Source of the DNA: a virus
Lineage: Duplodnaviria; Caudoviricetes
IMG/VR virus record: IMGVR_UViG_3300043444_000048
Location: 1-59,733 of that record
Strand: one strand, 5' to 3'
Length of the DNA stretch: 59,733 nt
Part shown: one piece after another, positions 16,155 to 55,837 of the stretch
Numbering within the stretch: the stretch's first letter is position 1
How the letters are laid out: every line of letters starts with the position of its first letter
Program-made: the position numbers and the translations under genes
Notes under the pieces: model-generated
Databases searched by the model: none
Told to the model about the DNA's origin: nothing
The model's input: only the letters and a program-made list of their open reading frames with translations

Positions 16155-16156
16155 TT

Positions 16157-25385: not shown

Positions 25386-25763
25386 ATGAACAATGCAAAA
25401 CCAAGATTTCCTGGTCAAATTGGTGACACAAAGGTGCAAGTAATTAAAGAAGAGTTTTCTCTTTTTGGCACATACGTTTGGGTAAAGCCAAATGGTAAGC
25501 CCTTTACAGATGGTCAGGGGAATGCTCTTTCAATTGAGGGTATGAAAGATGATCACGCCAGGATTAAAGAGCTAGCAGACGCAGCTAAATATTGGGGTCA
25601 GCCAGAGGGTAGGGCCGTGTTCTATCCGAATATGCGTAAGATTTCGGATGAAGAGTATTCTGAACAAGTAGACAGAATGAACCAGGGTCTTATCCCCAGC
25701 ATGAATGACCTAGGTGCTGTAATTGCTGCAAAGAAAACACTAGAGCTTTATGGAGACGAGTAA
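25386..25763 (+). CDS. Conserved hypothetical protein upstream of portal
   Basis: Start reassigned to ATG 25386, 7 nt after TGG-TATACT; TAATG-coupled to the portal gene. Confidence 0.65.
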   Translation: MNNAKPRFPGQIGDTKVQVIKEEFSLFGTYVWVKPNGKPFTDGQGNALSIEGMKDDHARIKELADAAKYWGQPEGRAVFYPNMRKISDEEYSEQVDRMNQGLIPSMNDLGAVIAAKKTLELYGDE

Positions 25764-27397: not shown

Positions 27398-27458
27398 ATT
27401 TTTAAAAAATGTTATAATATATTAATATTTGAAAAAAGTAAGGTATAATAAAACTACC

Positions 27459-28805
27459 ATGGCAATAAACAAGGTCCAGCTGGACACCAATGGCGACAAT
27501 GTTCGCCTATCAGTCCCTTTTAGTAAGGTCGACGTTGAGAGACGCATTGTCTCTGGTTTTGCCACACTCGATAACGTAGACAAGCAGGCCGACATTGTTA
27601 CAGCTGAAGCTAGCCTCAAGGCATTCTCTAAGTTCAAGGGTAACATTCGTGAAATGCACCAGCCTGTATCTGTAGGCAAGATGGTAGCTTTTAAAGAGGA
27701 TAAGTACTTCGATCCACAGTCAAAGAAGTTCTATTCTGGTATTTACGTTTCTGCATATGTATCAAAGGGTGCTCAGAACACTTGGGAAAAGGTTCTTGAC
27801 GGCACCCTTTCTGGCTTCTCTATTGGCGGAAGAATGAACAAGTACGATGATGCTTATAATGCAGACATCGACAAGACTGTAAGAATTATTAAAGACTACG
27901 ACCTAGTCGAGCTATCTCTAGTTGACAATCCTGCAAACCAGTTTGCCAACATTCTATCAATTGAAAAGGTTGATGGCGTTGACACCCTAAAGGGAGAGAA
28001 TGCTGACACTGAGCTTGAGAATGTTTTCTGGGACAAGGAAAACGGTATCGTAGTACTTTCTGAAAACGACACTGAGGAAAGCCCTATTAGTGGCACCCAG
28101 ATGGAGAATATAGGTTTCGTTGAAAAGAATGACAGCGAAAAAACAGAAATGATAAAGTTCTTGGTAGATAGTGCTAAAGGCATTAGCTCTGAGATAACTA
28201 AGGAGGTAAGTCCTATGACTGACACAACTGAAAACACAGTTGAGACTACAGCAGAAGATGTAGTAGTCGAAACAGCAGAGGTCGCTCCAGAGGCAGATGC
28301 CGAAGTTGAGAAGTCTGACAATGTAGCAGAAGAGTCAACAGAATCAGCAGAAGATGTTTCTAAGGCTGACGAGGTTGAGGATGCTGCAGTAGCAGAAGAT
28401 GAGACAGTAGAGGCAGATGCAACTTCTGAGTCTACAGAGGCAACTTCTGAAGATGCTGCATCAGACGATGAAGTATCTAAGTCAGATGACGTTGCTTCGG
28501 CTGAGATGATTGCCGATCTAAAGAGCAACATCGCAACAGCCTTTAGCGATCTAAGCGAAGTAGTAAAGTCGTTGCACGGCGAAATTACAGAGCTAAAGAA
28601 GTCACTAAATCTAGCAAATGCTAAGCTTTCAGATGCAGAGCGTGACTTTGAAGAATTTGGTAAGCGAATGGATGCCGTTGAGGCTGACACTGCTTTCCGT
28701 AAGTCTGGCGATCTAGGCGAGATCGTACAGGAAACTCAGATTAGAAAGTCTGAGCAATCCCCTTGGGGCGGTCGTTTCCTCAAAACTACCGACTTATTTC
28801 GATAA
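27459..28805 (+). CDS. HK97-family prohead protease fused to scaffold domain
   Basis: RIVSGFA, REMHQ (His), GFSIGG (Ser), LVELSLVDNPAN; acidic and coiled-coil C-terminal half. Start reassigned to ATG 27459. Confidence 0.92.
   Translation: MAINKVQLDTNGDNVRLSVPFSKVDVERRIVSGFATLDNVDKQADIVTAEASLKAFSKFKGNIREMHQPVSVGKMVAFKEDKYFDPQSKKFYSGIYVSAYVSKGAQNTWEKVLDGTLSGFSIGGRMNKYDDAYNADIDKTVRIIKDYDLVELSLVDNPANQFANILSIEKVDGVDTLKGENADTELENVFWDKENGIVVLSENDTEESPISGTQMENIGFVEKNDSEKTEMIKFLVDSAKGISSEITKEVSPMTDTTENTVETTAEDVVVETAEVAPEADAEVEKSDNVAEESTESAEDVSKADEVEDAAVAEDETVEADATSESTEATSEDAASDDEVSKSDDVASAEMIADLKSNIATAFSDLSEVVKSLHGEITELKKSLNLANAKLSDAERDFEEFGKRMDAVEADTAFRKSGDLGEIVQETQIRKSEQSPWGGRFLKTTDLFR
28215..28805 (+). 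CDS. Nested in-frame scaffolding protein (196 aa)
   Basis: Perfect SD TAAGGAGGT at 28199-28207 before an in-frame ATG; TGATAAAGT extended -10 at 28150-28158. Confidence 0.7.
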   Translation: MTDTTENTVETTAEDVVVETAEVAPEADAEVEKSDNVAEESTESAEDVSKADEVEDAAVAEDETVEADATSESTEATSEDAASDDEVSKSDDVASAEMIADLKSNIATAFSDLSEVVKSLHGEITELKKSLNLANAKLSDAERDFEEFGKRMDAVEADTAFRKSGDLGEIVQETQIRKSEQSPWGGRFLKTTDLFR

Positions 28806-28831
28806 TAAGCAATCACTTAGGAGGTGACAAT

Positions 28832-29941
28832 ATGTCGGAAGAGATTATTAAAAACTATCCAGATGCCGATGGAAACCCAACTGTAAATGGTGAGGGTGCT
28901 TTTGCGTCTGGTGGCATTGGCGGTGTGACTGATCCAGGTGCTAGCACCTTGGGCAACATTCCAACTGCTAACTTTGGTGTAACTTCTGGGCCAAATGCCG
29001 TAAATCCTTCGGGTGATGCAGCAAGCGGTATCCTCCGTCCTGAGCAAGCACGTCGTTTTATCGACTATGTTTGGGACGCTACAGTTCTCGCCAAGGATGG
29101 TCGCAGAGTAACTATGCGAGCCAACACCATGGAACTTGAGAAGGTTAACGTAGGTGAGCGTGTTATCCGTGCAGCTGCTCAGGCAGACGCTGGTTACACA
29201 AACACTGGTGCGACATTCTCAAAGGTTGAGCTAACCACAAAGAAGATTCGTCTAGACTGGGAAGTCTCAGCTGAGGCACTTGAAGACAACGTCGAAGGTG
29301 CAGCACTTGAGGATCACCTAGTTCGTTTGATGACAAATGCATTCGCAAATGACATCGAAGACCTAGCAATCAACGGTACTGGTACTGGTAATGACGCATT
29401 CTTGGCAATTATGCCTGGTTTCGTCAAGAAGGCACAGGATGGCGATGCACACGAGGCTATTGTAACAGTAGCTGACAATGCATGGACTCCAGAGGTAATG
29501 CAGAGCATTATCCTTGCTATGCCACGTAAGTACCGTGCACTTAAGAACAACCTTAAGTTCTACGCAGGCACAGATGCATTCCAGGGTATCGTTAAGCACA
29601 ACGGTACACTAGCTGACGCTATTGCTGAGGCTTTTGGTTCTGCAGCTAACACCGAGCGTAACGCTCAGGCTTACCTAGACGGCGTTGGCCAGACATTTGG
29701 TGGTGCACGTACCACCCGTGTTCTTGGCATCGACGTTCAGGAAGTACCTTACTACCCTAATGGTTTTGTAGACCTGACATTCCCAGCCAACCGTGTTTGG
29801 GGATTCCAGCGTGACATCACCGTTAACCGTGAGTACAAGCCAAAGAAGGACACCATTGAGTACACCGTATTCGTACGTTTCGGTATTCAGTGGGAGGAAG
29901 AGGATGCAATCGCATTTGCTGACGCAGCTGCGGATGCCTAA
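28832..29941 (+). CDS. Major capsid protein (HK97 fold)
   Basis: GILRPEQARRFID, ALEDNVEG and ANDIEDLAINGTG motifs; SD AGGAGGT before ATG 28832; followed by a terminator. Confidence 0.92.
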   Translation: MSEEIIKNYPDADGNPTVNGEGAFASGGIGGVTDPGASTLGNIPTANFGVTSGPNAVNPSGDAASGILRPEQARRFIDYVWDATVLAKDGRRVTMRANTMELEKVNVGERVIRAAAQADAGYTNTGATFSKVELTTKKIRLDWEVSAEALEDNVEGAALEDHLVRLMTNAFANDIEDLAINGTGTGNDAFLAIMPGFVKKAQDGDAHEAIVTVADNAWTPEVMQSIILAMPRKYRALKNNLKFYAGTDAFQGIVKHNGTLADAIAEAFGSAANTERNAQAYLDGVGQTFGGARTTRVLGIDVQEVPYYPNGFVDLTFPANRVWGFQRDITVNREYKPKKDTIEYTVFVRFGIQWEEEDAIAFADAAADA

Positions 29942-33105: not shown

Positions 33106-33768
33106 ATGCCAAACTACAATCGTGGAGATAGCAAGCAGATCATCGTTGGTGCTGCTGCACTTTTTGCTGCAGACACTACACTAGATGCTGACGTATTGCC
33201 AGCTGCCGTTAACGGTGCTAGCTACAAGGAAACCCTTTCGGACCCTCTAAACACAGAGGTAACCGATCTTGGTATCCGTAACGTAGGTTACACTATGAAC
33301 GGTCTAGAGCTACAGTTCCAGCCTGACTTCGGTGAGGTTCAGGTTGACCAGGTTCTTGACGTTGCCAAGCTTTACAAGCAGGGTATGCAGGTTAACCTAA
33401 ACACAACCTTCGCAGAGGCAACTCTGGAGAACTTGCTTTTTGCAATCGCAGGCCAGGACGAAGACAAGACTTCGGCCAACGCTTGGGGTACAGGAAGCAT
33501 GCAGCTAGACCTTTCTGCTGGTGACATCGGTGAATGTCCAGTAGAGCGTGGTCTCATTGCTGTTGGTCCTGGCACAGGTGACTGTGAAGCAGGAACAAGC
33601 AAGGAGCGTATCTATGTTGCTTACCGTGCACTCTCAATCGAGAGCGTAACAGTATCAGCAAAGCGTGACGAAGCAACAATGTTCGAAGTTTCGTTCCGTC
33701 TGCTACCAGAAGACGCATCAGGTTCATACGGTAAGATCGTTGATCGTACCATCCCAGCTGCAGCTTAA
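33106..33768 (+). CDS. Major tail tube protein
   Basis: IIVGAAALF, VGYTMNGL, VQVDQ, TTFAEATLENL and FEVSFRLLP motifs; own promoter, SD and terminator. Confidence 0.88.
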   Translation: MPNYNRGDSKQIIVGAAALFAADTTLDADVLPAAVNGASYKETLSDPLNTEVTDLGIRNVGYTMNGLELQFQPDFGEVQVDQVLDVAKLYKQGMQVNLNTTFAEATLENLLFAIAGQDEDKTSANAWGTGSMQLDLSAGDIGECPVERGLIAVGPGTGDCEAGTSKERIYVAYRALSIESVTVSAKRDEATMFEVSFRLLPEDASGSYGKIVDRTIPAAA

Positions 33769-34918: not shown

Positions 34919-37900
34919 ATGACTGATATACGTTCAGACATAATTATTAATGTTGATACGTCTATCGGCATTGCTGAAATTAAGAATCTGCAAAGACAGA
35001 TTGCAGAACTTAATGCACAGCTCCTGAAGTCAGGTGCCCAACAAGCACGAGCTGCCCAGAACATACAGCGTAATCTTATTAATAATATTAACGCTACTGG
35101 GCAGTTCGCTGCTTCTGTAAAGAACATTTCTTCTACTGCCGAAAGCTTTACCACAGCACTAGAAAGAAACAAGCTCGGCATGGGCGAGTACTTTCGGTAC
35201 GCAGGTGGTGCAAGCAAGACTTTTGGTAAACTCTTTAAGAGAGAGTTTGACACAATCCAGCAGGTAGCTGAGTCACGTGTAAAGACCCTTCAGACTCAGT
35301 ATGTAAAGCTAGGTAGAGACGCTAACGGAGCCCTAAAAGCTATCCAGGTTAGACCACTAGCTCTTGACATGGAGAACCTAGCCACAAAGACAGCTATTGC
35401 AGCTCAAAAGCAACAGCTAATGAACCAGCTGCTAAAGCAGGGTTCTACAAACCTTCTAAACTTTGGTAAGAACACCCAGTGGGCTGGTCGTCAGCTTATG
35501 GTTGGTTTCACTATTCCTCTTGCATACTTGGGTAGCGTTGCATCTAAGACCTTCATGCAGATGGAAGAGCAAGCTATCCGCTTCAAGCGTGTTTATGGAG
35601 ATACATTTACAGCTACCTCTGAAACTGACAAGATGATTGATCAGGTAAAGAAGCTTGCTGGAGAGTTTACTAAGTATGGTGTTCAGGTAGAGAAGACCAT
35701 GAAGATGGCTGCTGACGCAGCTGCTATGGGTAAGATGGGTGCTGACCTTCTTGCACAGATCAAGGAAGCTAGTACACTGGCTGTTCTTGGTGGGGTAGAG
35801 CAAGAGCAAGCCCTAGAAACAACCATCTCTCTGACCAATGCTTTCGGTATCGCTGCAGAAAAACTAGCTGGAAAGATTAACTTCCTAAACGCAGTAGAAA
35901 ACCAAACCGTAACATCAATTGAAGACTTGACTATTGCTATTCCAAAAGCTGCTCCTGTAATTAAGCAGCTTGGTGGTGACGTAGAAGACTTGACATTCTT
36001 CCTAACAGCTATGAAGGAAGGTGGCATCAATGCTTCCGAAGGTGCTAACGCCCTAAAGTCTGGTTTGGCATCCCTAATTAACCCAACAGACAAGGCTAGT
36101 AAGTTTTTGGCAGGCTTTGGAATTAACCTCAAGGGGATTGTTGAGGCAAACAAGGGAAACGTCAAGGGTCTGGTCGTAGACTTCGCTCAGGCTCTTGACA
36201 CCCTTGATCCACTAAGCAAAGCTCGTGCTATTGAGCAGCTATTTGGTAAGTTCCAGTTTTCACGTCTATCTACCCTTTTCCAAAACGTAATTGCCGAGGG
36301 TAGCCAGGCAGAACGAGTTCTAAAACTAACAAGAAACTCTACAGAAGAGCTAGCTATCCTATCTGAGCGAGAGCTTAAGCGTGTTGAAGAGTCTCCGATG
36401 TACAAGTTTAAGAAGGCTGTAGAGGACTTGAAGGTTTCTCTAGTGCCTCTTGGTGAAGCATTCCTTAAGGCAGTTACTCCGCTTGTAGAGTTTGCCAAGG
36501 GCTTCCTAGACCGCTTTAACTCAATGGGTGAGGGTGCAAAACAGTTTGCAGTTATTGCTACAACCGTAGTAGCTGGAATTGGTCCAGTTCTACTTATGAC
36601 TTTTGGTCTGATTGCTAACGGTGTTGCAAACCTTATTAAGATGTTTGCAGCTATTTCAAATATCTTTAGGGGTGCAGGAAAGTCGTCAGCTGACCTAGGT
36701 ACTCAGACTGAGTACATGACTCAGCAGCAGCTAGAAGCAGCAGCAGTTGCAGCATCTCTAGATCAGACACACGCAAAGCTAATTCAAACATTCGGTGTTG
36801 AAACAGCAGCTGTTGAAAAGTTGGCAACCGCATATGCACGTGCTGTAGTTGCACAGTCTAAGCTAGTTGGTTCCCCAATTCCTGCTGGTAAGGGTAGAGG
36901 TGCAGCACCTGCCAAGCCAATGAAGCTCCAGTCTGGAATCTTGTCTGTTCCTGGTCCAAAGGGTGCAGGAGACGTTGTTCCTGCTATGCTTTCGCCTGGT
37001 GAAGCAGTTATCCCTGCTAAGCAATCTCAGAAGTACGCTGGACTAATCCAGGGCATGATGAAGGATGAGATCCCAGGATTTAGATTTGGTCGCAATCCTT
37101 TTGCCTCTATGCTTGGTCGCTCTCGTGTTGCTGTAAGGATGAAGCAGGAAGACCTACAGGCTGCACTTGGAGCTGGCAAGAAGGCACGTTACCAGAACGC
37201 ATTTGCTACTGGTACTGGTGCAGACTACCTGACTACTTCTGGTCTGCAGAATCCAGCACAGGCTAAGCTACGCTCTGCAATGGAGAGAGATGTCTTTGGC
37301 ATTCCTCTAGATGCTGCAGCAGGCTCTAGACCAACTTATGGATATGCAAGAACATCTCCACTCCAGGCAATTATTAATAAGCTTTTTGGATTCAAGGGCA
37401 GACAGTTTAATACTGTTACAGCTAACCAGAGAATTGGTGAAAAGAAGTTCTGGAGTCCAGCTAACCAGCCAGATGTTAAGTACCCAGAGCTTGATAGAAA
37501 TGATCCTCTTGCACGTTATGGTGATGTGGACCTCATTACTAGGAGATCTGTTGCAAAGAGATCTTCTGCACACGTTGGCGATGCCCTGATTCGCTACAAT
37601 AGAGTTCTGGGTGGAAGAAAGTCAGTAGTTCCAGTCGATCCAAGATTTGGTGCAGCACCAATAAAGGGTGCTACACAGTCGCAGCTTGACAAGGCAATGT
37701 TCGATACCCTGAATAGTCCATTTGGAAACAACCGTGTTCCTGGAACAAACATGTACAACGCCAACCCAAAGCCAGGGTACGTAGAGACATATACTCCAGG
37801 TGGCTTTGGTCTAAACGAAGTTTCTAGAATTGTTACAAGAGACCGAGGTACTGCTAAGCAACTACAAAAGCTTGTTGATAGAGCTGGTCTAAGAATCAAG

Positions 37901-40900
37901 GTAACCCCACAGAATGCCCCACTAGTTGTTAGAATGCTTTCTAACGTTATTGGGTCTCGTTTTTCTGAGGGATCAGATAAAATATCTGCAAATATTATTC
38001 GTGAGCTTAGGTCTAAGCTAAGAGGATCTCCTACAGCAATCAGTGATGCCTATAAGGGTGTCACATACGGAGCGTTGGCACAAGAAGATGCTTTAGTTAA
38101 GAGTTTGGCTACAAAGTATGGTCTGTCACAATCTCAGGTTCTTAGCTTGCTTGGCACAGACAACTCTCACATTGGTAAGGTTACAAGAACAGTCACTATT
38201 GGTGGCTCCACAGAAGAGGCAAAGCTGTGGAGAATGCAAGACATTCAAAAGGACCACAGAGCAGTAAATCAGATTCTAGAAAACATCTCTGTGATGGGTT
38301 CTCCAAAGGGGTCGTTCCTACAGTCTTTGACTGCCGAAGAGATTTCACGTTCACAAAAAATTGGTCTAGAGGATGCTAGAAGAGAGCTTGCAAACATTCA
38401 AGCTGGGGGTCACCCAACTAGTAGAGCTGGATATCAGGTACTTAAGGGAATTGCTGACATTACTGCGAACAAGTTCCCAACCAAGGCAACTGGGGTTAGA
38501 GCAAAGATTCTTTCTGAGCTTCTAGATTTCAGATTTAAGGACAAGACTGCTGGATCTTATTTCAAGGCACTGGAGGCAAAGAAACTAACTCTTCCAGCAG
38601 ATGACAAGATTACGAGCCGAGGAATTGCTCAGCAAGACAGAAGAATTGCTACAGCAAATCAACAGCTAGCTCTTTTGCCATCAGTTAAGAGGCCAGCAAA
38701 GAACCCAACCACTAAAGTTCAAGCTCCAAAGCTAACCAGGGGTTCTAAGCAACAAGCAGCAATTAGTATGGCTCAGTTGCTAGGTAAAAGGTATGCTAGC
38801 GGTGTTGTTTCTGTTCCTGGACCAAAGGGTGCTGGCGATGTAGTCCCAGCCATGCTGTCTCCAGGAGAGGCTGTAATCCCTGCCAAGATGTCGGAAAAGT
38901 ATGCTCCGCTAATTAGCAGCATGATTTCGGACTCAGTTCCTGGCTATGCCCAGGGTAGACAGCGTAGAAACCGTGCTAACTTTGGAAACAACTATGGACC
39001 AATAGCACGTGGAGAAATGACTCCACCAGTATCTCAAACACAGGTATCAGCTTCAGTTGCAAATACTCTGATGGCATCTATGAAGTCTTCCAGAGTTAAG
39101 ACAGCATTTGGCAACATTGCTACCTCTGTAGGAAACTCAATTAGCTCAGGTTTGTCTAGTATCAAGGGCAAGATTATTGACGCAGCATCCTCTGCAAAAG
39201 AAAAAATGTCGGGTGCCAAATCACCTCAAGCAGGGCAAATTGTTCAAACTGGAAACAGGTATTATGAGATAGGTGCGGATGGCAAGAAGCGTCCAATAAA
39301 GAAGGCCGATGCCGTGGCCAAGCAGCAACAGCAGGCTAAACCTAGCCTAGGAAGCAGACTCAGTGGTCGACTCGGAACCGTGGGCATGGTTGGTTCTACT
39401 GTTGGCATGGGTATGATGATGTCTGGTGACCCAAATATGCAGCAAGCTGGAGGAGCTGTTATGGCAGCCTCTATGATTGCACCACTGCTGCCTATGCTAA
39501 TGAACCCAATTGGTCTTGCAGTAGCAATGCTTGCAGGTCTCGCAGCGACCGTGGTTCTTCTTAACCAGGCATACAAAGAAAATGTTAAAAAGACTTACGA
39601 GCTGACCATGGCAGTAGGTGGCTCAACCAAGTCTATTAGAAAGCTGTCTGAGTTTACTGGAAATGTGACCGCTGGCGAAATAATGGATAAGCGTCGCTCC
39701 AAAGGGGTGGATATTTTCCAGGTAGCTGCAGGTAAAACTGGCTTTGGAGACGCATTCTTGCAGTCGGAAGCAGGTCAAGCACTCAAGGCATCTCTTGGAG
39801 AGTCTCTCAAGACTAATGGCAGAGAGGCAGCTGCAACTAGCCTAACAAACCAGATGGCCACAGCTGTTGCTTCTGGTGCCCTATCGGCAGGCCAGGCAAG
39901 AGATATTGTAGCTGCAATTGGAAAAGAGATGGACGATTATTCGTTCTCAATTGGCGTTAATTCAAAGCTCTTGTCGGTTCTTGGTCCAAACGGCGAGAAC
40001 CTTTTGACTGATCCTCTACAGGTACGCCTAGACTTGGTAAAAAGCTCACAGGCAGAAGTTAAAAAGTTTGGAAAGGTTTGGGACGAAGAGGTAAACCTAG
40101 ACATTGCTAATGATCTTGATCAAGGCGGTTTTGCTGGCTCTGTTGCAGCTATTGCTGGATCGGTGGCTTTAATCTCAACAGCAATGGCAGGGTTCACTGC
40201 TGGAACAAGCCTTATCGTGGCTGGTCTCGCTGCTGCAGTGGCAGGTACTGCAGCATATTTCTCTACAGCAGAAGACTTCTCTAAGGACGCAGCTGCAACT
40301 GGTGCTTTTGTTGCAAATAGTGCTATTGCTTTGCAGACAAACAAGGAAATGGTAGACTCTCTCCAGATTCAATATGAGCAAGAACGTGCAATAGCCCTAG
40401 CAAAGAAAGATTCTGCCGAAGTCTCAAGACTAGATCTTCAGTATGCAGAAGACAGGCAGGCACTTCTTTCAGAGTATGCTACAACCGTAAAGTCTATTCA
40501 AGACACGTTTGCAACAGCAGACAACCAGCAGTCAGTTCTTGATGAATACGAGACCCTTACCAAAGAAATGTATAAGGATGACCCACTTAGTGGCAAGATT
40601 TTGGAAGGTATTGAGTCTCAGCTAGACGCTCTTACAGATGACAAAGAGGTCGTTATTAGAGCAGCACTTCTTTCAAAGGACCTGTCTCCAACAGCTGCTC
40701 AGGCATTGCTTAGTGGTGAAAATATTGATAGGAATGTTTCTCTATACGTTAAGCTGGGTGGATCTGGGTACTCTAAGCTAGAGCAAACCGTAGCTCTATT
40801 TGATGAAGGTTCAAAGACCAAGGACGCATTCAGAGACAAGGTAAATTCTTTTGTTGACCCAGTAGAGGCAGAAAAATTTGTCGCAAGCTTTGACCCAGTT

Positions 40901-43900
40901 ATACAGTCACTGTCGGCAATGGGAGAAGGCACCCTCTCTGCTGGACTGGAGTTTTACTTTGCTAACCCAGAAGCCCTTGATGAAGCTAACGCCCAAATTG
41001 CTGAGTTTAAGAAGCAGGCTGACAAGGGGCCAATTACCCAAAAGATGATTCAAGAGGTCTATGGTCAAGAGATGGTAGACAAGATTAAGACCAACCAGGC
41101 TTACTTCGATACCTTGCCAGATGATCAAAAGGTTGTTTATACAACTGTTCTTAAGATGATTGGAGAAATGGACCCAACAGCAAAGATGATTGCTGCAATT
41201 AACTTTGTTAAGAGTGGTAAGGGTGCAGACCAGTTTAAGAAAATGACTGGCATGGATTATGCCACAGCATCAGCTTCTGGAACAATGAGCTACGAGTGGG
41301 TAAATAGCAAGGCTGTTGAAGTGTTTGATACCTACGGTGCTGAAGCGGTAACAACTGCAGGAGACACCACAACCAAAACTTCTGCACCACCAACCACCAA
41401 TAATTCGGGTGGCAAGAAGGATGACCCATACGAAGACATTCTGCGTGACCTAAAGAGACTAAGAAACTGGACCATTAAGACTGCTGGTGGCTTTAAAGAG
41501 CTGCAACGTGTAATGGGCAAGTCTAACAATATGAAGATTCTTGGTGGTGTAGAGTCTAAGCTTCTAGAGTCTACTGCAGGTATTTCTGCACCACTAGCAA
41601 GCTACTTCGCTGGACTTGACGAAAAAACTCAAAAGCTGTTTTTCAAGATTGGTAAGGATGGCAAACTTGTTCTAACTAAGCAAGGCAAGTACTTCAAGCA
41701 AGCCTTTGACGAGAGAGCAGTTGGAAACGTATATGTTGGTTTGCAGGGGCAGCTAAAGACTCTGAAGCAGCAAAACATTGCAACTAAGAAGCTAGCAGAC
41801 ATGGGTCTTGATTGGGCTACCGCATCAGAGATGGCTGGCGACGCAGAGTTTGCAGCAGCGGTAGCTAGCGGAAAGAATGCTACAGAGCTACAGAAGATTG
41901 TAAACCTGAAGAAGCAAGAGCTAGAGCTTACAAAGAAGAGCAACGCCTTGCAAGAAGCTAGAATTGCAATTGATGAAAATAATGAGCAAACCAAGCTAAA
42001 CGATCTTATTGCTGCATACTCATTTGACGATCAGAAAGCTATTATGGCTAGCTCTCAGCTCCAAGAGCTAATCAAGACAGGTCAGGCAAACACAGCAGAG
42101 TTCCAAAGACTTCTGGCACAAGAGATTAAAAAGATTATCGACCAAGACTTTAGGGCAGCAGCAGATGCTCTAAAGCAAGCTGTCAAGGACTTTATGGCAC
42201 GTGCAAGGGCAGAAAGAACTGTTCAGTCACAGTTTGGAAAGTCTTCCCCAGTAGTCGCATCGGTAATTCAGTCAGACCAGCAGCTAATGGATATGATTAC
42301 CGCTGCACAGACAGCAGGTAAAGAGCTAGGTCAAGAGTTCTATGATAGACTACGCCAGCTTCTGTCAGATCCAGATACACTTGGTCAGGTATTTGACGAA
42401 GGTCTTAACAAAGCTTTCTCAGCTTTTGACGCACAGGAAAAGGCAATTGAGCTTAAGTTTGAGGCAGACACCAAGTTCTTGACTGATCCAGAAACTGGAG
42501 TCATATCAGTAGCACAGCGTAAGATTGCAGACCTAGAGTATGCTATCGATGATTACAACTATGGTCTTGAGCAGATTTCTCAAAAGGAAACAGAAATCAA
42601 TGAGAAGTATGACGAAAGATTTAAGGCTCTGGATGAAATCCGCAAGGTAAACGATAGACTTATCGCACAAGAGCAAGCTCAGCTAAATGTTGCAGATGCA
42701 CTTACTCGTGGTGATATCGCTGCAGCAGCTAGAGCAGTGCAAGACTACAGAGCAAAGCAGGTTGCTACCAATGCAGAAGCACAGCGTGATGCTCTTGAAA
42801 CCGCTAAGCAGAAGGAGCTAGACGCTCTCACAGCAACAGTTAATGGCAAGACTCTGACTCGCAAGCAGCTTGAAAAAGAAATTCAGACAATTAAGAACCA
42901 AATTCTTGAAATTGAAGAAAAGACTTTGGAGCCAGCTGAGAAGGCACTTAGAAACTTCACTGAGCAGCGTGACATCGCCATCTCTAACGTTACTGTTCTA
43001 GGTAAGACACGCCTAGAATGGGAGGGTATCCAGAACCAGGTAGCCATTGCAGCGGTTAATAACAATGCATTCCTCTCATCACTAATTGCTACCTTGTCAG
43101 TTGTAGAGGCACTAAAGAAGGCATACGGTGAGCTAGGAGGATCTACTCCAGGAAGCGTTAATATTGCAACTTCTCCAGCAGGAACTATTGCTAACTTTAC
43201 TACTCCAGAAAGCTCAACAGCAGAGCCAAGCAGCGTAACGATTAACCCAAACCTTACCGCTGCTGCACCTGTAGTTACCGCAACACCAGAAACAACTACC
43301 GCTGCTCCAGTGGTCGTGACAACAGCAGCACCTGCAGCCACATCGGCACCAGCAAAGAGCACTACCGCAGCTCCTAAGAAAACAACTACTGCAGCACCAA
43401 AAAAGGTTAATCCAGCTTATACTACTGCAAAAAATGCAGTGGATAACTTAACAGATCAGCTGGCTGATGCAAGAGCTAAAGTTTCTAAACACTCAAACCT
43501 TCTTGCAGGTTTTGAGAGATCGAGAAATGCAGTACCACCAGCATATAGGTACACCTATGATGATGACATTGCTGCACAAAAGAAACTAATTTCTCAGTGG
43601 CAATCAACTATTAATTGGACTGGCAAGGCTTTGCAGGATGCACAGTCAAAGCTTGCAAAGACTCCACAATACCTTGCTATGGGTGGACTTGTCAAGGGCT
43701 TTAATACAGGTGGGTTTGTTTCTCAGGGTACTGACACTGTTCCTGCAATGCTAACTCCAGGAGAATTTGTTGTTAAGAAGTATGCAGTAGACAGCTTTGG
43801 AATGGATAACCTAAAGGCAATTAATAATGGCACATACCAGGGTGAATCAGTGTATAATTATGAAGTAAACATTAGCGTTAAGTCAGATGCAGATGCAGAC

Positions 43901-43978
43901 CAGATTGCAAGAGCAGTAATCTCGCAGATCAAGCAGGTAGACTCGCAAAGAATTAGAGGAAATAGTTTTAATGGCTAG
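34919..43978 (+). CDS. Tape measure protein (3019 aa) with inserted cargo domains
   Basis: TP901-type TMP core in the N-terminal ~600 aa, hydrophobic segments, long coiled coils and C-terminal GTDTVPAMLTPGEFVV motif. Confidence 0.92.
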   Translation: MTDIRSDIIINVDTSIGIAEIKNLQRQIAELNAQLLKSGAQQARAAQNIQRNLINNINATGQFAASVKNISSTAESFTTALERNKLGMGEYFRYAGGASKTFGKLFKREFDTIQQVAESRVKTLQTQYVKLGRDANGALKAIQVRPLALDMENLATKTAIAAQKQQLMNQLLKQGSTNLLNFGKNTQWAGRQLMVGFTIPLAYLGSVASKTFMQMEEQAIRFKRVYGDTFTATSETDKMIDQVKKLAGEFTKYGVQVEKTMKMAADAAAMGKMGADLLAQIKEASTLAVLGGVEQEQALETTISLTNAFGIAAEKLAGKINFLNAVENQTVTSIEDLTIAIPKAAPVIKQLGGDVEDLTFFLTAMKEGGINASEGANALKSGLASLINPTDKASKFLAGFGINLKGIVEANKGNVKGLVVDFAQALDTLDPLSKARAIEQLFGKFQFSRLSTLFQNVIAEGSQAERVLKLTRNSTEELAILSERELKRVEESPMYKFKKAVEDLKVSLVPLGEAFLKAVTPLVEFAKGFLDRFNSMGEGAKQFAVIATTVVAGIGPVLLMTFGLIANGVANLIKMFAAISNIFRGAGKSSADLGTQTEYMTQQQLEAAAVAASLDQTHAKLIQTFGVETAAVEKLATAYARAVVAQSKLVGSPIPAGKGRGAAPAKPMKLQSGILSVPGPKGAGDVVPAMLSPGEAVIPAKQSQKYAGLIQGMMKDEIPGFRFGRNPFASMLGRSRVAVRMKQEDLQAALGAGKKARYQNAFATGTGADYLTTSGLQNPAQAKLRSAMERDVFGIPLDAAAGSRPTYGYARTSPLQAIINKLFGFKGRQFNTVTANQRIGEKKFWSPANQPDVKYPELDRNDPLARYGDVDLITRRSVAKRSSAHVGDALIRYNRVLGGRKSVVPVDPRFGAAPIKGATQSQLDKAMFDTLNSPFGNNRVPGTNMYNANPKPGYVETYTPGGFGLNEVSRIVTRDRGTAKQLQKLVDRAGLRIKVTPQNAPLVVRMLSNVIGSRFSEGSDKISANIIRELRSKLRGSPTAISDAYKGVTYGALAQEDALVKSLATKYGLSQSQVLSLLGTDNSHIGKVTRTVTIGGSTEEAKLWRMQDIQKDHRAVNQILENISVMGSPKGSFLQSLTAEEISRSQKIGLEDARRELANIQAGGHPTSRAGYQVLKGIADITANKFPTKATGVRAKILSELLDFRFKDKTAGSYFKALEAKKLTLPADDKITSRGIAQQDRRIATANQQLALLPSVKRPAKNPTTKVQAPKLTRGSKQQAAISMAQLLGKRYASGVVSVPGPKGAGDVVPAMLSPGEAVIPAKMSEKYAPLISSMISDSVPGYAQGRQRRNRANFGNNYGPIARGEMTPPVSQTQVSASVANTLMASMKSSRVKTAFGNIATSVGNSISSGLSSIKGKIIDAASSAKEKMSGAKSPQAGQIVQTGNRYYEIGADGKKRPIKKADAVAKQQQQAKPSLGSRLSGRLGTVGMVGSTVGMGMMMSGDPNMQQAGGAVMAASMIAPLLPMLMNPIGLAVAMLAGLAATVVLLNQAYKENVKKTYELTMAVGGSTKSIRKLSEFTGNVTAGEIMDKRRSKGVDIFQVAAGKTGFGDAFLQSEAGQALKASLGESLKTNGREAAATSLTNQMATAVASGALSAGQARDIVAAIGKEMDDYSFSIGVNSKLLSVLGPNGENLLTDPLQVRLDLVKSSQAEVKKFGKVWDEEVNLDIANDLDQGGFAGSVAAIAGSVALISTAMAGFTAGTSLIVAGLAAAVAGTAAYFSTAEDFSKDAAATGAFVANSAIALQTNKEMVDSLQIQYEQERAIALAKKDSAEVSRLDLQYAEDRQALLSEYATTVKSIQDTFATADNQQSVLDEYETLTKEMYKDDPLSGKILEGIESQLDALTDDKEVVIRAALLSKDLSPTAAQALLSGENIDRNVSLYVKLGGSGYSKLEQTVALFDEGSKTKDAFRDKVNSFVDPVEAEKFVASFDPVIQSLSAMGEGTLSAGLEFYFANPEALDEANAQIAEFKKQADKGPITQKMIQEVYGQEMVDKIKTNQAYFDTLPDDQKVVYTTVLKMIGEMDPTAKMIAAINFVKSGKGADQFKKMTGMDYATASASGTMSYEWVNSKAVEVFDTYGAEAVTTAGDTTTKTSAPPTTNNSGGKKDDPYEDILRDLKRLRNWTIKTAGGFKELQRVMGKSNNMKILGGVESKLLESTAGISAPLASYFAGLDEKTQKLFFKIGKDGKLVLTKQGKYFKQAFDERAVGNVYVGLQGQLKTLKQQNIATKKLADMGLDWATASEMAGDAEFAAAVASGKNATELQKIVNLKKQELELTKKSNALQEARIAIDENNEQTKLNDLIAAYSFDDQKAIMASSQLQELIKTGQANTAEFQRLLAQEIKKIIDQDFRAAADALKQAVKDFMARARAERTVQSQFGKSSPVVASVIQSDQQLMDMITAAQTAGKELGQEFYDRLRQLLSDPDTLGQVFDEGLNKAFSAFDAQEKAIELKFEADTKFLTDPETGVISVAQRKIADLEYAIDDYNYGLEQISQKETEINEKYDERFKALDEIRKVNDRLIAQEQAQLNVADALTRGDIAAAARAVQDYRAKQVATNAEAQRDALETAKQKELDALTATVNGKTLTRKQLEKEIQTIKNQILEIEEKTLEPAEKALRNFTEQRDIAISNVTVLGKTRLEWEGIQNQVAIAAVNNNAFLSSLIATLSVVEALKKAYGELGGSTPGSVNIATSPAGTIANFTTPESSTAEPSSVTINPNLTAAAPVVTATPETTTAAPVVVTTAAPAATSAPAKSTTAAPKKTTTAAPKKVNPAYTTAKNAVDNLTDQLADARAKVSKHSNLLAGFERSRNAVPPAYRYTYDDDIAAQKKLISQWQSTINWTGKALQDAQSKLAKTPQYLAMGGLVKGFNTGGFVSQGTDTVPAMLTPGEFVVKKYAVDSFGMDNLKAINNGTYQGESVYNYEVNISVKSDADADQIARAVISQIKQVDSQRIRGNSFNG
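36932..37090 (+). repeat. TMP internal module, copy 1 (SVPGPKGAGDVVPAMLSPGEAVIPAK...)
   Basis: 26 aa core identical to copy 2 at 38798-38956. Confidence 0.9.
38798..38956 (+). repeat. TMP internal module, copy 2
   Basis: Same peptide as copy 1 with many synonymous nucleotide differences; a third, diverged copy lies at ~43700-43790. Confidence 0.9.
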
Positions 43979-44700: not shown

Positions 44701-47700
44701 TTGTTCGTAGATAAAGATCTCAAGAAGCACCTGGAAACTTCGTCGGTAATTAAGAACCAATCTCTTGTAACTGCCGAATGGAACATGAATATTGCTACCA
44801 ACGTAACAAAGCTTGGAAACTATAAGTATCGACCATATGAAAATGTAGCCTTGCCTATAGGGCAAAGATCGGTATATGCTACTCTAAACAACGCTTTTGA
44901 CCCCAATGACACAGGACTGTTCTACACTGGTGCTACAGACAGCGACATTATCATAGATGGTGGGTACGATAACTCAGATCAGCCAATGGCTTTTGTTAGG
45001 CCAAAGCAAAAAGAAAAGCTGCTATATTCTTTAGAGAGTTGCATTGAAAGATTTAGACCACGCTCAGGCATCAACAAGCTAAGGTGGTTTGACAACTCGT
45101 ATTCTCATTTCACTAACTCTAACCTTTCTACTAGACCTAGATACTATATGGCTCATAAGGATGATCCATTCAAGTACTGGTCATCGTATAGAATGGACGG
45201 TACAGTCGAAAGAGGTATTGCAAACTCTTCTAGACAATTCTCTGGAACAAACTATATTGATGATGCAGCCCCATTCGTAGTATATTCATCACCAGTTCCT
45301 GCTAACAGACTAGTTGTTAAGATGCAGACAAATGTTGGCTCTACTAATCTAGGACCATTTAGCAATAGTTTTGGTGAGTTTGCAGACCCATTCTTTGGAG
45401 CAGAAAACATGTCTGTTCCACAAAGATGGAAGGTCCAGTACCTAAACAACGGCTCGTGGCAAGACGCAGTAGTCTTCAATGAATTCTCTACTAGAAATGA
45501 CGGATCTTCTGTAATTGGCCCTGATGGCTATGTTGAGCTAGCATATGGACTAATCATTCCAGAGCAATACAAGTCAAACTTTATTCTTTATGACACTATC
45601 TCTACTAGCTTTGCATTGCCAGCAGAGGCTCTAGAGGGTCAGGCCTGGCTTGTAGCGTCTGGCACCAATGACTCTGGAACTGTTCACGTATGGTCAAACG
45701 GCAGCTTTAAGTCTTTTAAGGCTAGATATGGCTGGTACTTGTTAAGTGAACCTATGGAGTCATCTCTAACCATGGCTACTAAGTTAGTCAACCCAGACCA
45801 ATTTCATGATCCTGTATCTGCAAACATAGTGTATAGGGAGTTCCAATATGTTTCTGGAATTCGGGTAGTAGTTGACACAATGGTAAAGCCAGACTCTACA
45901 TTTGACCTTATCGAGATGTCTCCAAGGCTTGCTGTAGACCTGACAGACAAAGTGTCTTCTTTTAATGTCACTAAGACAGCGTCTGACCTAGGAGTTAGTG
46001 GTCTTCCTGTTGGGCAGCTGCTGGCAGGTACTGGAGACGTAGACATTTTTGACTATGATATGGCATTCTCTAAAACTAACTCTTCTAGTATAATTGCAGA
46101 CTACGCATCTCAAAGTGTTCAGATTAAATTTTACGAGACTATTTATGATGTTCCCCAGTATGACACTGCTGGCAATAACACTGGTCTAGCCAACTACTAT
46201 GTCCCCCTAAAGACCATGTTCTCTGAGGGTTTCCCAACTATTGACTCTAACTCTAGAAACGTTCAGCTAAAGCTTAGAGATAAATTCTTCTACTTTGAAT
46301 TTTTGACGGCACCGCAGATATTCATCCAGAATGTCTCTCTAAGCTATGCTGTGTCTACTATTCTAGATTACATTGGTTTCTCTAACTACACTTTTAAGAG
46401 GATGCCAGACGAAAATGAGCCAATCATTCCATTCTTCTTTATTCAACCTGAGACTTCTGTGGCACAGGTGCTGCAGGACTTGGCTATCTCCACACAAACA
46501 ACCATGTTCTTTGACGAATACAACAACTTTGTAGTCATGAGCAAAGACTATATGTTGCCATCAAATGACAATAGACCACTAGATGTTGTGCTAGTCGGCA
46601 GCAAGGACTTTGAGTCGGATGGAGTATACTCTAATAAGGCAACCAATGGTGAGCTCCCACTAGCAAACATTATTGAAATTGCTTCACAGGATAATCAGGT
46701 ATACAACGATGGCTCTATTCAGTATACGCATAGATATATTCAGCGTTCTATAGGAAAGCTAAGCCAGGCATCATTTACTGAAAAAGACCAGACCTGGATA
46801 TACAAGCCAGCATTGCTTTGGGAAATTGCTCCACAAGACAGTCCAAAATCGGTTAACAATGAAGTGTCTTCAGTGTCTAACTACGCCCTGACAGCAGTTC
46901 CTCTGAACTCAGACTTGCCAGATCGTGCTCCAATTGTTTCTAGCAATCAGATTTTGTACAATACTATCGACCTAGGAGAAGCTGTTTTTTGGCTAGGCAG
47001 ATACAATGGCTACCTATATGCTAACGGTGAGATTATTAGATTTGACGCTATCCAGTACACAATTCCTGGGTATGTTGCTGAAGATGGCACAAGCAACTTT
47101 TGGATTTCTAGCGTACGAGAATACCAACAGTACTTCTCAAACATTCCGTTTAATGGAAAGCTTTACCCGACAGGTCTGGTGAGAATCTATACAGAGCCAC
47201 ACTACGAGACTATTGGTAACATTACTCGTATGAAGAATGGCAATGTGGCTAAGCACGGTAGAGGACAGTTTGGTACTCCAGTTGTATATCACAATGCTGG
47301 CCTTAATTCCCACTGGACTGACAACGCCAATGTTCATGCTTGCAAGATGCAAACAGACTACTTGTTTGGTAACAAGGTGTTTACTGGAACTGCAGACAGC
47401 ACAGTCGCAGGAGACTCTCCAGCGGTAGCAATTAGGTTAAATCGTACAGGAATTATCAAGAATTTCCTAAGTGCAACATTCAACTCCGAGTCTGAGCTAA
47501 GCTCTCTATACTCTACTCAGACTGGAACTGTTCAGTCTTCTGCATTAGTTATGCAGGGAGGAAGCTTCTTTAGTACAGAAACTCCTCTACAGTATATGTC
47601 TTACGTTCACAAGCCACTCAAGAACAACTATAAGCACTTTGGAACTAGAATGAGAATTGTTGGTAGGATTGAGAATGACTCTAACAATACGCAGACTGCG

Positions 47701-49050
47701 TCTGGCTCAATGTCATACTTTGTTTCACAAAATGCAACGCCAGACAAGACACCAGTTATTGGTGGTGGCTCAGGAGGTCTTGGAATCTTTGTTAATCCAG
47801 CAAAAAACACAGGCTACTTCTTTGAGATGATTGCTCTAGCGAGCACAAACATTGATGAGATTGACTCGGTAGCTGACGTAGTGTTCTACAAGGTTGTAGC
47901 ATCTGGAAGCGAAGCAATCCCAATCAAACTTTGGTCTGGAATTGCTGGGAATAGTGTTGATGATGGTAACTTTGCTGGGCAGTATAGGGTTACTGCTGAA
48001 GAAAGACCATCAGTATACGATATCTCTGTAGAGTACCAGGATGTTGGAAAGATTAGAAAGTTCTATCTATATATTAACGGCAGTTTGGTCCAGATTGTAG
48101 ATGATGCAGACCCACTTCCAATCTACAACAACATGGCTTTGTTCGTCCGTGGAACTTCTAAGTGTATGTTTGAAAATGTGTATGCCCTGACATCTAACTA
48201 TGCTCAAAATACCGCTACTGCAGTCAACTTGCCATCAAATTCAGTCTTTGCCAATAAGGCAATCACGGTTAATGATACGTTTAGAAAGTATGCCTTGAGC
48301 GGTATGGTTGAGTCTTCCTACCTGTCAAACATTAGCCCATCTCAGCCACCATCGTATGATATGTACTTTGAAGAATTTGGGACAATCATGCGTGAAGCAG
48401 CATACATGAACGTTAAGTATGAGGTGTTCCCAGCACTAACTGCACAGCTATCTCCAACTTTTAGCAGCCTAAAGGGATATACAGTTTCTGGTTTTTCTGC
48501 TGGGGCATATGGAGCAGAGTTCCTAATCTTCAACACAACAGACGCACCAATAAGCCTAGATGAGACTAGCGGAAACTACCTAAGAATTCAGGGTGCAGCT
48601 ATTACTCAAGAGTCAGAAAACGACCTAACTGTCGACGAGTATTTTGCAAAGACGGGTAGTTTTAGCGACCAAGAGCTATCTTCTGGAAACTCCGTGATAT
48701 TCTCACCAGCTAGACAGCAAAAGCTGTTCTACGACATTAAGAACAGCAGAATTACTTATGGCAAGAATGCATTCTCGCTAGCTGCTCCCTATATCCAAAG
48801 CCACGACGAAGCTTGGAACCTCATGGGATGGCTAACAAAGAAGATCATGAAGCCAAGAATGTCTGTTGGCATTAAGATATTCTCTAACCCAACAATTCAG
48901 CTTGGAGATATTGTAAGCATTCACTATAGGGACAATAGCCAGGATGTAGTTATCCCTAGCGATAAAAAGTTTGTGGTGTACAATATTTCTCATACAAGAA
49001 GTTTGGATGGACCAGACATGACTGTATACCTAAGTGAGGTTGGTGAATAA
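44701..49050 (+). CDS. Large tail-tip/baseplate hub protein
   Basis: Synteny after Dit; MFFDEYNNFV and C-terminal NPTIQLGDIV hub-type motifs. Start codon uncertain (TTG). Confidence 0.7.
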   Translation: MFVDKDLKKHLETSSVIKNQSLVTAEWNMNIATNVTKLGNYKYRPYENVALPIGQRSVYATLNNAFDPNDTGLFYTGATDSDIIIDGGYDNSDQPMAFVRPKQKEKLLYSLESCIERFRPRSGINKLRWFDNSYSHFTNSNLSTRPRYYMAHKDDPFKYWSSYRMDGTVERGIANSSRQFSGTNYIDDAAPFVVYSSPVPANRLVVKMQTNVGSTNLGPFSNSFGEFADPFFGAENMSVPQRWKVQYLNNGSWQDAVVFNEFSTRNDGSSVIGPDGYVELAYGLIIPEQYKSNFILYDTISTSFALPAEALEGQAWLVASGTNDSGTVHVWSNGSFKSFKARYGWYLLSEPMESSLTMATKLVNPDQFHDPVSANIVYREFQYVSGIRVVVDTMVKPDSTFDLIEMSPRLAVDLTDKVSSFNVTKTASDLGVSGLPVGQLLAGTGDVDIFDYDMAFSKTNSSSIIADYASQSVQIKFYETIYDVPQYDTAGNNTGLANYYVPLKTMFSEGFPTIDSNSRNVQLKLRDKFFYFEFLTAPQIFIQNVSLSYAVSTILDYIGFSNYTFKRMPDENEPIIPFFFIQPETSVAQVLQDLAISTQTTMFFDEYNNFVVMSKDYMLPSNDNRPLDVVLVGSKDFESDGVYSNKATNGELPLANIIEIASQDNQVYNDGSIQYTHRYIQRSIGKLSQASFTEKDQTWIYKPALLWEIAPQDSPKSVNNEVSSVSNYALTAVPLNSDLPDRAPIVSSNQILYNTIDLGEAVFWLGRYNGYLYANGEIIRFDAIQYTIPGYVAEDGTSNFWISSVREYQQYFSNIPFNGKLYPTGLVRIYTEPHYETIGNITRMKNGNVAKHGRGQFGTPVVYHNAGLNSHWTDNANVHACKMQTDYLFGNKVFTGTADSTVAGDSPAVAIRLNRTGIIKNFLSATFNSESELSSLYSTQTGTVQSSALVMQGGSFFSTETPLQYMSYVHKPLKNNYKHFGTRMRIVGRIENDSNNTQTASGSMSYFVSQNATPDKTPVIGGGSGGLGIFVNPAKNTGYFFEMIALASTNIDEIDSVADVVFYKVVASGSEAIPIKLWSGIAGNSVDDGNFAGQYRVTAEERPSVYDISVEYQDVGKIRKFYLYINGSLVQIVDDADPLPIYNNMALFVRGTSKCMFENVYALTSNYAQNTATAVNLPSNSVFANKAITVNDTFRKYALSGMVESSYLSNISPSQPPSYDMYFEEFGTIMREAAYMNVKYEVFPALTAQLSPTFSSLKGYTVSGFSAGAYGAEFLIFNTTDAPISLDETSGNYLRIQGAAITQESENDLTVDEYFAKTGSFSDQELSSGNSVIFSPARQQKLFYDIKNSRITYGKNAFSLAAPYIQSHDEAWNLMGWLTKKIMKPRMSVGIKIFSNPTIQLGDIVSIHYRDNSQDVVIPSDKKFVVYNISHTRSLDGPDMTVYLSEVGE

Positions 49051-52397: not shown

Positions 52398-52705
52398 TGG
52401 CAGATCGCAAAGACCGCATGGCTTTGCTGAGCAGATTTAATAAACACTACCAGTTTAAATACAACGTAAAGCCAACGTACAACCTTTGGGCAGAGCAGTG
52501 GGCTGCAGATGCCCTTATCGAATCTTATGGTTTGAGCACGTGCTATGAGCTACTGGAGTATTACTTTGAGTCTGCACAAAAGCCAGACTGGAAGTATTTC
52601 TCTAACTTTGCTCACGAAATCGTGTTGGCAAAACAAAACTATGAATCAGACAAAAAAGAGCGTGAGCAACGCAGACAACTAGCAAAGAAGTGGCTAAATG
52701 AGTAA
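52397..52705 (+). CDS. Hypothetical protein upstream of helicase (possible loader)
   Basis: Overlaps both neighbours; helical sequence. Confidence 0.6.
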   Translation: MADRKDRMALLSRFNKHYQFKYNVKPTYNLWAEQWAADALIESYGLSTCYELLEYYFESAQKPDWKYFSNFAHEIVLAKQNYESDKKEREQRRQLAKKWLNE

Positions 52706-53918: not shown

Positions 53919-53931
53919 TTATAATATATGC

Positions 53932-55121: not shown

Positions 55122-55165
55122 TATAGCTAATTTACATAGCAAACTACTATAAGGAGAAATACAAC

Positions 55166-55822: not shown

Positions 55823-55837
55823 GAAAGGTTTTCTACG

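Follow-up and report, generated by a model that had tools for sequence, protein, structure and literature searches.

The stretch of DNA analysed here (59,733 nucleotides (nt), hereafter the window) is the complete IMG/VR virus record IMGVR_UViG_3300043444_000048, which is linear and has an estimated completeness of 55%. Its plus strand carries a gene for a tape measure protein (TMP) of 3019 amino acids (aa), and inside this protein, at aa 725-1000, lies a domain that profile comparison relates to DUF3626 and to the Salmonella ADP-ribosyltransferase (ART) SopF. Together with a second insert, this domain is enclosed by two copies of a short sequence block. The features of the gene, all on the plus strand, are given one per line.

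34919-43978, plus: TMP gene, a single open reading frame (ORF) of 3019 aa
34919-36925, plus: conserved N-terminal core, aa 1-669, with PhageMin_Tail at 35672-36247
36539-36652, plus: hydrophobic Gly/Ala-rich segment, aa 541-578 (hydropathy scan and sequence)
36926-37090, plus: block 1, aa 670-724, containing VPAMLSPGE; borders the cassette on its left side and forms the left direct-repeat arm
37091-37918, plus: DUF3626/SopF-like, ART-like domain, aa 725-1000 (profile homology)
37337-37339, plus: Y807, predicted to contact nicotinamide adenine dinucleotide (NAD+)
37517-37519, plus: Y867, predicted NAD+-contact residue
37784-37786, plus: E956, predicted NAD+-contact residue
37919-38785, plus: module 2, aa 1001-1289 (289 aa), second insert, no Pfam match
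38786-38956, plus: block 2, aa 1290-1346, near-repeat of block 1 and right border of the cassette
39368-40258, plus: region with two more hydrophobic Gly/Ala-rich segments, aa 1484-1548 and 1735-1780 (hydropathy scan and sequence)
43676-43975, plus: C-terminal block, aa 2920-3019, with the third motif copy, TVPAMLTPGE

The initial annotation of this DNA had claimed an ART-like domain of the DUF3626 type at 37091-37920, inside a TMP, and both carrier and position have held up. TMP aa 252-443 match the Pfam family PhageMin_Tail (E 4.7e-24, Pfam scan), the protein matches ten PHROG families annotated as tape measure (best phrog_10030, E 4.4e-94), and its closest matches in cultured phages are annotated TMPs at ∼31% identity. 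Frame 1 reads, in the order originally listed, VAVR, YQNAFATGT, R..MERDVFG, RPTYGY, ARYGDVDL, VAKRSSAHVGDA and YVETYTPGGFGLNEVSRI. The domain starts right after a conserved block of 55 aa, and the profile alignments span residues 2-276 of its 276, in agreement with the borders that had been proposed. A phmmer search of 1.84 billion representative proteins with the domain has returned 45 proteins at E ≤ 1e-3, 37 of which exceed 1000 aa (2100-3400 aa in most cases) and share the N-terminal core of the TMP. In these homologues the domain usually lies at ∼aa 720-1000, and in some at ∼1050-1350, 1830-2070, 2100-2340, 2300-2525 or 2510-2765. The core itself is common to 29-35 of the 37 large homologues and is 65-80% identical across 80 IMG/VR loci, which are the best of at least 587 relatives of the core in IMG/VR, include some mutual duplicates and have been used for the domain census given below. 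The C-terminal block is kept in 24-34 of the 37, and the C-terminus of protein P0039, which has the same motif, matches C-terminal parts of PHROG tape-measure families. Near this end, at ∼43290-43440 (aa ∼2790-2840), a low-complexity stretch rich in Thr, Ala and Pro has been noticed, and small overlapping ORFs lie inside the conserved coding frame at 37307-37573 (minus), 37311-37589 (plus) and 37594-37899 (minus). The GC content of the domain is 46.5%, versus 45.2% for the TMP, and its composition is without sign of foreign origin.

Close relatives of the domain have been found neither in species-representative genomes nor, by megablast and tblastn, in 50,697 cultured phage records, and phmmer has given no match between the domain and PDB sequences. 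The phmmer search has nevertheless reached P0044, a protein of 310 aa (E 1.2e-4 from the window's domain, P0001), which scores 21.1 bits on PF12294, the Pfam model of DUF3626, and E 2.6e-18 on phrog_8314. Its relatives P0054, P0056 and P0052 score 53.2, 42.6 and 27.1 bits on PF12294, the Pfam gathering cut-off being 27 bits. For comparison of profiles, the window's domain has been aligned with 27 of the 37 full-length domain segments (alignment A1), one segment identical to that of the window (P0003) and nine redundant ones having been dropped; pairwise within A1, the copies are 29-58% identical to the window's copy. PF12294 at E ≤ 1 matches 4 of the 28 members of A1, the best at 5.9e-5. By hhalign, A1 matches the six proteins around P0044 (A2) at 99.3% probability (E 8.5e-21, 197 columns), a local alignment of all 31 DUF3626-type domains at 99.84% (E 2.1e-30, 199 columns) and 19 of these 31, selected to avoid long fusion partners (A3), at 99.75% (E 2.4e-27, 195 columns). 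In the second of these comparisons, 246 of the 253 query positions and 202 of the 226 template positions are aligned. Precomputed PF12294 matches are carried by 29 of the 31 domains, none of which comes from a TMP.

The relation holds in both directions. A hidden Markov model (HMM) of the 31 domains matches all 48 distinct TMP-embedded domains at 47-115 bits, with a score of 65.5 bits for the window's copy over residues 5-273, while the control maximum is 5.1 bits among 2000 domain shuffles and other 276-aa windows of the same TMP. Conversely, the A1 HMM matches all 31 DUF3626 domains at 30-75 bits; bit scores are the meaningful measure here, as the E-values of these reciprocal searches derive from tiny databases. 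In an alignment of P0001 with 21 DUF3626-type proteins (A4), the positions R61, P81, Y83, G84, Y143, G144, D164, E232, G237 and G238 (domain numbering) are invariant, and they are kept in 47-48 of the 48 TMP copies. The ordered motif set R-x3-E..FG, RP-x-YG, YG, R-[ST]-[ST]..GD-[SA]-L, Y-[IVL]-E and GG is present in the window's domain, and the DUF3626 consensus given in the initial annotation has turned out to be nearly literally that of the collected PF12294-type proteins. Judged by these profiles, the domain is a clear DUF3626 homologue that falls outside PF12294 as now drawn, being below its threshold and lacking an otherwise invariant His. The comparison shows that Pfam's PF12294 model misses the whole TMP-borne branch. 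The DUF3626 identity and the profile similarity expected for aa ∼725-1000 are thereby borne out.

SopF carries DUF3626 at residues 178-338 (PMC6682159). It has been described as an ART with an I-Y-E triad, with the structures 7DN8 and 7DN9 (PMC10333799), whose substrate is a Gln of the V-ATPase c subunit and whose catalytic site opens only with the help of GTP-bound ARF1 (PMC12560355). Its activity is reported to be largely abolished by the mutations E325A (N-ribose binding) and Y224A and Y240A (nicotinamide binding), and the mutagenesis primers place these residues in P-I-Y-A-A-L, A-Y-G-K and Y-I-E-A-H (PMC11937434). The ART kinship suggested by the initial annotation is supported through this family, as DUF3626 profiles match the SopF chains: A3 reaches 7dn8_C at E 1.4e-6 and 7dn9_A at E 2.9e-5, A4, which includes P0001, reaches the two at E 1.5e-5 and 3.4e-4, and the small A2 profile reaches SopF chains at E 1.8 only. 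In the motif register, which is set by sequence alignment only, SopF Y224, Y240 and E325 correspond to TMP Y807 (RPTYGY), Y867 (RYGDV) and E956 (YVETY). Conservation has been counted over the 48 distinct TMP-embedded copies (51 before de-duplication), 37 from the representative proteins and the rest from related loci. R740, Y758, R785, E789, R804, P805, G868, D888, E956 and G962 are kept in all of them, and Y807 and Y867 in 47 each, with one Phe in either case. Such strict conservation at 29-58% overall identity is what one expects of a working active site, and the domain would most likely use NAD+ as SopF does.

Regarding the place of the TMP copies within the family, a FastTree phylogeny of 88 domains with midpoint root has united the 48 TMP copies and the short P0048-P0050 in one clade (local support 0.958). 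The stand-alone P0047 is sister to this clade, and the MuF-fused, capsid-fused and free DUF3626 domains lie elsewhere in the tree; close relatives of P0047 and P0044 are absent from the viral contigs searched. By a pattern scan, the canonical DUF3626 motif occurs on 142 viral contigs, from which 80 loci with 71 distinct carrier ORFs, 68 of them with intact 3' end, have been kept for analysis. The canonical domain lies at most 50 aa from the C-terminus in 48 of the 68 intact ORFs, at least two copies are found in 9 of the 71 distinct carriers, and an HMM of the TMP-family core matches none of the 71. Fusion partners are Phage_Mu_F, Phage_min_cap2 and ADPrib_exo_Tox, with one domain below threshold in two of the MuF fusions. 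A MuF domain is present in five of six large carriers (one below threshold), and two of the six also have a classical ART domain. At L093, L094, L115, L123 and L155, DUF3626 stands in tandem on some proteins and is elsewhere paired with ADPrib_exo_Tox on one MuF protein. Among cultured phages, 24 records match a DUF3626 domain by tblastn; the annotations under these matches read 'minor capsid protein' in Lactococcus phage P1045, 'DUF3626 domain-containing protein' in Nodularia phages, and 'capsid maturation protease and ADP-ribosyltransferase' for gp9 of Mycobacterium phage Tierra. Canonical phage DUF3626 domains (PF12294, phrog_8314) are homologous to the window's domain and likewise ride on a virion protein thought to exit the particle with the DNA. 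They differ in being terminal and head-borne, on MuF or minor-capsid polyvalent proteins, in keeping the His of their QIHGG motif and in passing the Pfam threshold, whereas the window's domain is internal to a tail TMP and belongs to a clade of its own.

Blocks 1 and 2 bracket the ART-like domain plus module 2, cross-match each other in homologues, and contain at the DNA level a direct repeat (36944-37059 and 38810-38925) of 116 nt with 73% identity. The VPAML(S/T)PGE block occurs three times in the TMP, at aa 688, 1310 and 2942. All relatives share the block 1 of ∼55 aa with VPAMLSPGE, and divergence starts directly behind it; in most relatives a copy stands at ∼aa 685 and another at the C-terminus, and each insert is followed by an additional copy. 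Many TMPs have a C-terminal end similar to this block, for whose role docking, cleavage or recombination sites are candidates. What lies between the blocks varies. The ART-like domain is present in 13 of the 80 best related TMP loci (11 of the 65 whose ORF is uncut at the 3' end), and in five of five related records there is one domain copy per record, always within the TMP ORF. Module 2 occurs in 7 of the 37 large homologues that bear the ART-like domain, in varying order relative to it, and in none of the 80 related loci. Other inserts of 300-1050 aa have been seen in the same slot or behind the ART-like domain (L004, L005, L041, L054, L083, L026, L008 and L010). Nine other inserts or regions of the variable slot, from this and related TMPs, have no Pfam match at E ≤ 0.01, so that the slot may hold further cargo domains.

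Exchange of the domain is seen most directly in comparison with contig L001. TMP nucleotide identity to this contig is 81-93% to the left of, and 58-78% beyond ∼aa 1400 to the right of, a tract spanning codons 696-1068 (1119 nt, ∼37004-38122) in which the two sequences do not differ at all. Over the 276 domain codons there are 0 synonymous and 0 non-synonymous differences, versus 164 and 16 over 485 aligned codons of the N-terminal core. This identical tract, whose left end lies inside block 1, is a sign of very recent recombination, both sequences being metagenome assemblies in which assembly chimerism is possible. Over 39 TMPs with the ART-like domain, which are non-independent points, identity to the window's copy in the core shows no correlation with that in the domain (Spearman 0.17, p 0.30). 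As a cassette, the domain is optional and mobile, being gained, lost and exchanged by recombination.

Because the TMP carries a swappable module related to SopF, the phage probably introduces an enzyme that uses NAD into the host cell along with the phage DNA. More fully, we consider that aa 725-1000 represent a divergent, TMP-specific branch of the DUF3626/SopF ARTs, which is exchanged as a block-bounded cassette, would be injected and would modify the host by means of NAD+, and we give this reading a probability of roughly 0.55. TMPs are described as being expelled before the DNA and have been proposed to build or line a passage across the envelope, an idea that extends to TMP channels with glycine zippers (PMC10240207, citing Roessner & Ihler and Cumby et al.). 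In the proposed course of events, the TMP would leave the tail ahead of the DNA and its hydrophobic segments would insert in the envelope, those at aa 1484-1548 and 1735-1780 being candidates for membrane insertion. The domain would then meet cytoplasmic NAD+, bind it via Y807, Y867 and E956, and put ADP-ribose on a host target before phage genes are expressed, for takeover of the cell or for counter-defence. An NAD+-using effector delivered with the TMP had already been proposed in the initial annotation; this remains an inference, to which the canonical DUF3626 domains lend indirect support as cargo of MuF-type phage head proteins.

Several known systems are comparable in part. With SopF the domain shares the superfamily and the motifs RP-x-Y, Y-G and Y-[IV]-E, in which SopF Y224, Y240 and E325 lie, and also the delivery into a target cell by an injection device, which for the TMP domain is presumed. 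SopF differs in being a free effector of 374 aa that acts in animal cells, is activated by an ARF GTPase and targets the Gln of the V-ATPase c subunit (PMC10333799; PMC12560355), whereas the TMP domain is internal to a phage TMP and lacks the His of the SopF motif H-I-H-G-D. Enzyme modules that act during entry are known from the muralytic motifs of the mycobacteriophage TM4 TMP and from T5 pb2, both being TMPs with a working module of this kind. Their substrate is peptidoglycan, outside the cytoplasm, whereas an enzyme that depends on NAD+ would have to get into the cytoplasm. T4 Alt, an ART of the R-S-E type, is a separate, head-packaged protein and resembles the TMP domain in the concept of a particle-carried, injected ART. 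It is injected with the DNA and has been reported to modify, for example, the alpha subunit of RNA polymerase before phage expression (PMC7824862; PMC5576092). From the head, T4 Alt and the MuF-fused ARTs presumably do what is proposed here for the tail.

A number of observations weigh against an injected, SopF-like enzyme. PF12294 matches neither the domain nor the whole TMP at E ≤ 1, nor the six-frame translation of the record at E ≤ 10; the domain is likewise without match in PHROGs and NCBIfam; and the A1 profile alone finds nothing among PDB sequences at E ≤ 10. Classical ART families such as ADPrib_exo_Tox have no Pfam match in the TMP or the domain at E ≤ 1 either. Taken alone, these failed direct look-ups would make the idea of the initial annotation look refuted. 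The ART fold and the NAD pocket are predicted from sequence. The His of E-A-Q-I-H-G-G, present in 19 of 19 DUF3626 proteins of A3 and also in SopF, is lost in all 48 TMP copies, where Pro (30), Phe (6), Met (4), Ala (3), Leu (3) or Lys (2) takes its place; in the window it is Pro960. The Gln near the lost His is retained in 22 of the 48, the others having Tyr (17), His (7) or Leu (2). With a family-invariant His lost throughout, the chemistry may differ. The initial annotation had allowed for an inactive domain on account of positions that deviate from the consensus; this concern is justified only in part, since the deviation is real at this His but the putative NAD+ contacts Y807, Y867 and E956 are kept in 47, 47 and 48 of the 48 copies. 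Further points concern activation and delivery. SopF depends on GTP-bound ARF1, and the TMP domain is not known to have an activator of this kind. A folded domain of 276 aa, present in several copies, would have to fit into the tail tube or unfold there, and its arrival in the cytoplasm is presumed. Assignment of a host by metagenome-assembled genome (MAG) bins has been tried and rejected as unreliable, because relatives of the TMP have been binned to unrelated phyla, namely Acidimicrobiaceae (2 loci), Methylococcus (3) and Bacteroidota (4); none of these nine MAG-binned relatives has the ART-like domain.

In one alternative, the domain is a real DUF3626 homologue that no longer ADP-ribosylates proteins. 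It could act as an NAD+ glycohydrolase; the molecule modified could be DNA, RNA or a small compound; or the domain could do no more than bind NAD+, ADP-ribose or a nucleotide signal. We regard this alternative as rather unlikely, though it deserves to be kept in mind. The uniform loss of the His, the partial retention of the neighbouring Gln and the separate position of the TMP clade in the tree all suit an altered chemistry, and SopF, the sole DUF3626 member of known activity, is itself unusual in modifying a Gln (PMC12560355). However, the three SopF residues for NAD+ and ten further invariant positions are kept, which fits NAD+ catalysis and leaves the acceptor unspecified.

Another alternative is a catalytically dead domain that would serve as spacer, plug or docking module of a very long tape measure. 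The main known role of the carrier is structural, 67 of the 80 related TMPs do without the domain, the Pfam model fails on it and the conserved His is gone. A spacer would nevertheless not be expected to hold ten invariant residues and the Tyr/Tyr/Glu set in 47-48 of 48 copies that are as little as 29-58% identical, nor to be swapped between diverged phages as a tract of 100% identity, and we find such a purely structural role improbable.

The genes around the TMP are, one per line:

25763-27397: portal
27429-28805: protease
28763-29941: major head protein
33106-33768: Ig-domain tail protein, upstream of the TMP
44701-49050: minor tail protein, downstream of the TMP

Their order, with portal, protease, major head protein, Ig-domain tail protein, two small ORFs, TMP, an ORF of 242 aa and minor tail protein, fits the tail module of a siphovirus. 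A replication module at 52698-59113 comprises a DnaB-like helicase, a DnaG-type primase and a full DNA polymerase III (Pol III) alpha subunit with PHP, NTPase, finger and HhH domains. Complete relatives measure 112-125 kb, which is large for a siphovirus; the two complete ones that bear the ART-like domain have 124.5 kb, with terminal repeats, and 112 kb. Genes for a tyrosine integrase, a Macro protein or an ADP-ribosylglycohydrolase (ARH) have been found neither in the record nor in five related records with the ART-like domain (two of them complete), serine integrases and unknown immunity proteins not having been searched for. This result suits a virulent phage with an early effector better than it does a toxin-immunity pair. 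Among other features, a 319-aa protein at 19569-20528 combines phage tail repeats with Mtd_N, the N-terminal domain of the major tropism determinant; a reverse transcriptase has not been found in this record of ∼55% completeness, so that a diversity-generating retroelement is neither supported nor ruled out. A search for tRNAs has found nothing, and two large ORFs, at 21825-25367 (1180 aa, directly upstream of the portal) and 16124-17764 (546 aa), are without Pfam or PHROG match.

A further possibility is that the domain is a weapon of the polymorphic-toxin type or a tool of superinfection, which would hit cells in which infection is non-productive or act late in the producing cell, rather than in early takeover. 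Jamet 2017 has described MuF toxin domains, 14% of them ARTs, and proposed that they are delivered with the DNA (PMC5576092). Canonical DUF3626 occupies the toxin-domain place of these proteins, and phages exchange the cassette as they do toxin modules. Nevertheless, MuF toxins are described as occurring almost only in temperate phages, together with immunity genes (PMC5576092), whereas the window's TMP has no MuF domain by Pfam, carries its domain internally instead of at the C-terminus and is accompanied by no tyrosine integrase, Macro or ARH gene within the scope given above. The phage also has DnaB, primase and Pol III alpha genes of its own, and we therefore give little credence to a role as such a weapon. 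Lastly, a chance or compositional match of motifs within ordinary tape-measure sequence, for which the lack of direct matches in Pfam, PHROGs, NCBIfam and PDB sequence searches might be held to speak, is refuted by the shuffle controls and the hhalign comparisons.

The preferred reading of an injected NAD+-dependent enzyme can be extended, although we hold the extension as a whole to be quite doubtful. Virulent siphophages of ∼110-125 kb would use the TMP as a modular injection vehicle, whose cassettes, bounded by the 55-aa block, are swapped by recombination. The SopF-like cassette would act at the membrane during DNA entry, e.g., on an inner-membrane target of the ATPase c type. The V-ATPase c subunit is homologous to the c ring of the bacterial F-ATPase, and as the SopF target is itself membrane-embedded, a membrane-inserted TMP could place an ART on such a target. 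Effectors of the SopF type that act in animal cells would then descend from phage entry weapons.

To our knowledge, enzyme modules of TMPs are known only as cell-wall hydrolases, and injected ARTs are known from phage heads, as in T4 Alt and the MuF fusions. A TMP domain of the present kind has not been found described in the literature searched, in which DUF3626 is treated in Salmonella papers only; the main text of Jamet 2017 does not name PF12294 (PMC5576092), and its supplementary tables of toxin domains may name DUF3626. The clear borders of the cassette and the three mutable residues Y807, Y867 and E956 make the idea directly testable. These comparisons place SopF, the sole characterised DUF3626 enzyme, in a family that seems to reside mainly in phage virion proteins. 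If the reading is true and a TMP does contain a conserved catalytic module of the NAD+ type, some of the tape measure would have to enter the cytoplasm and be active in it, which bears on the old question of the fate of the TMP during DNA entry.

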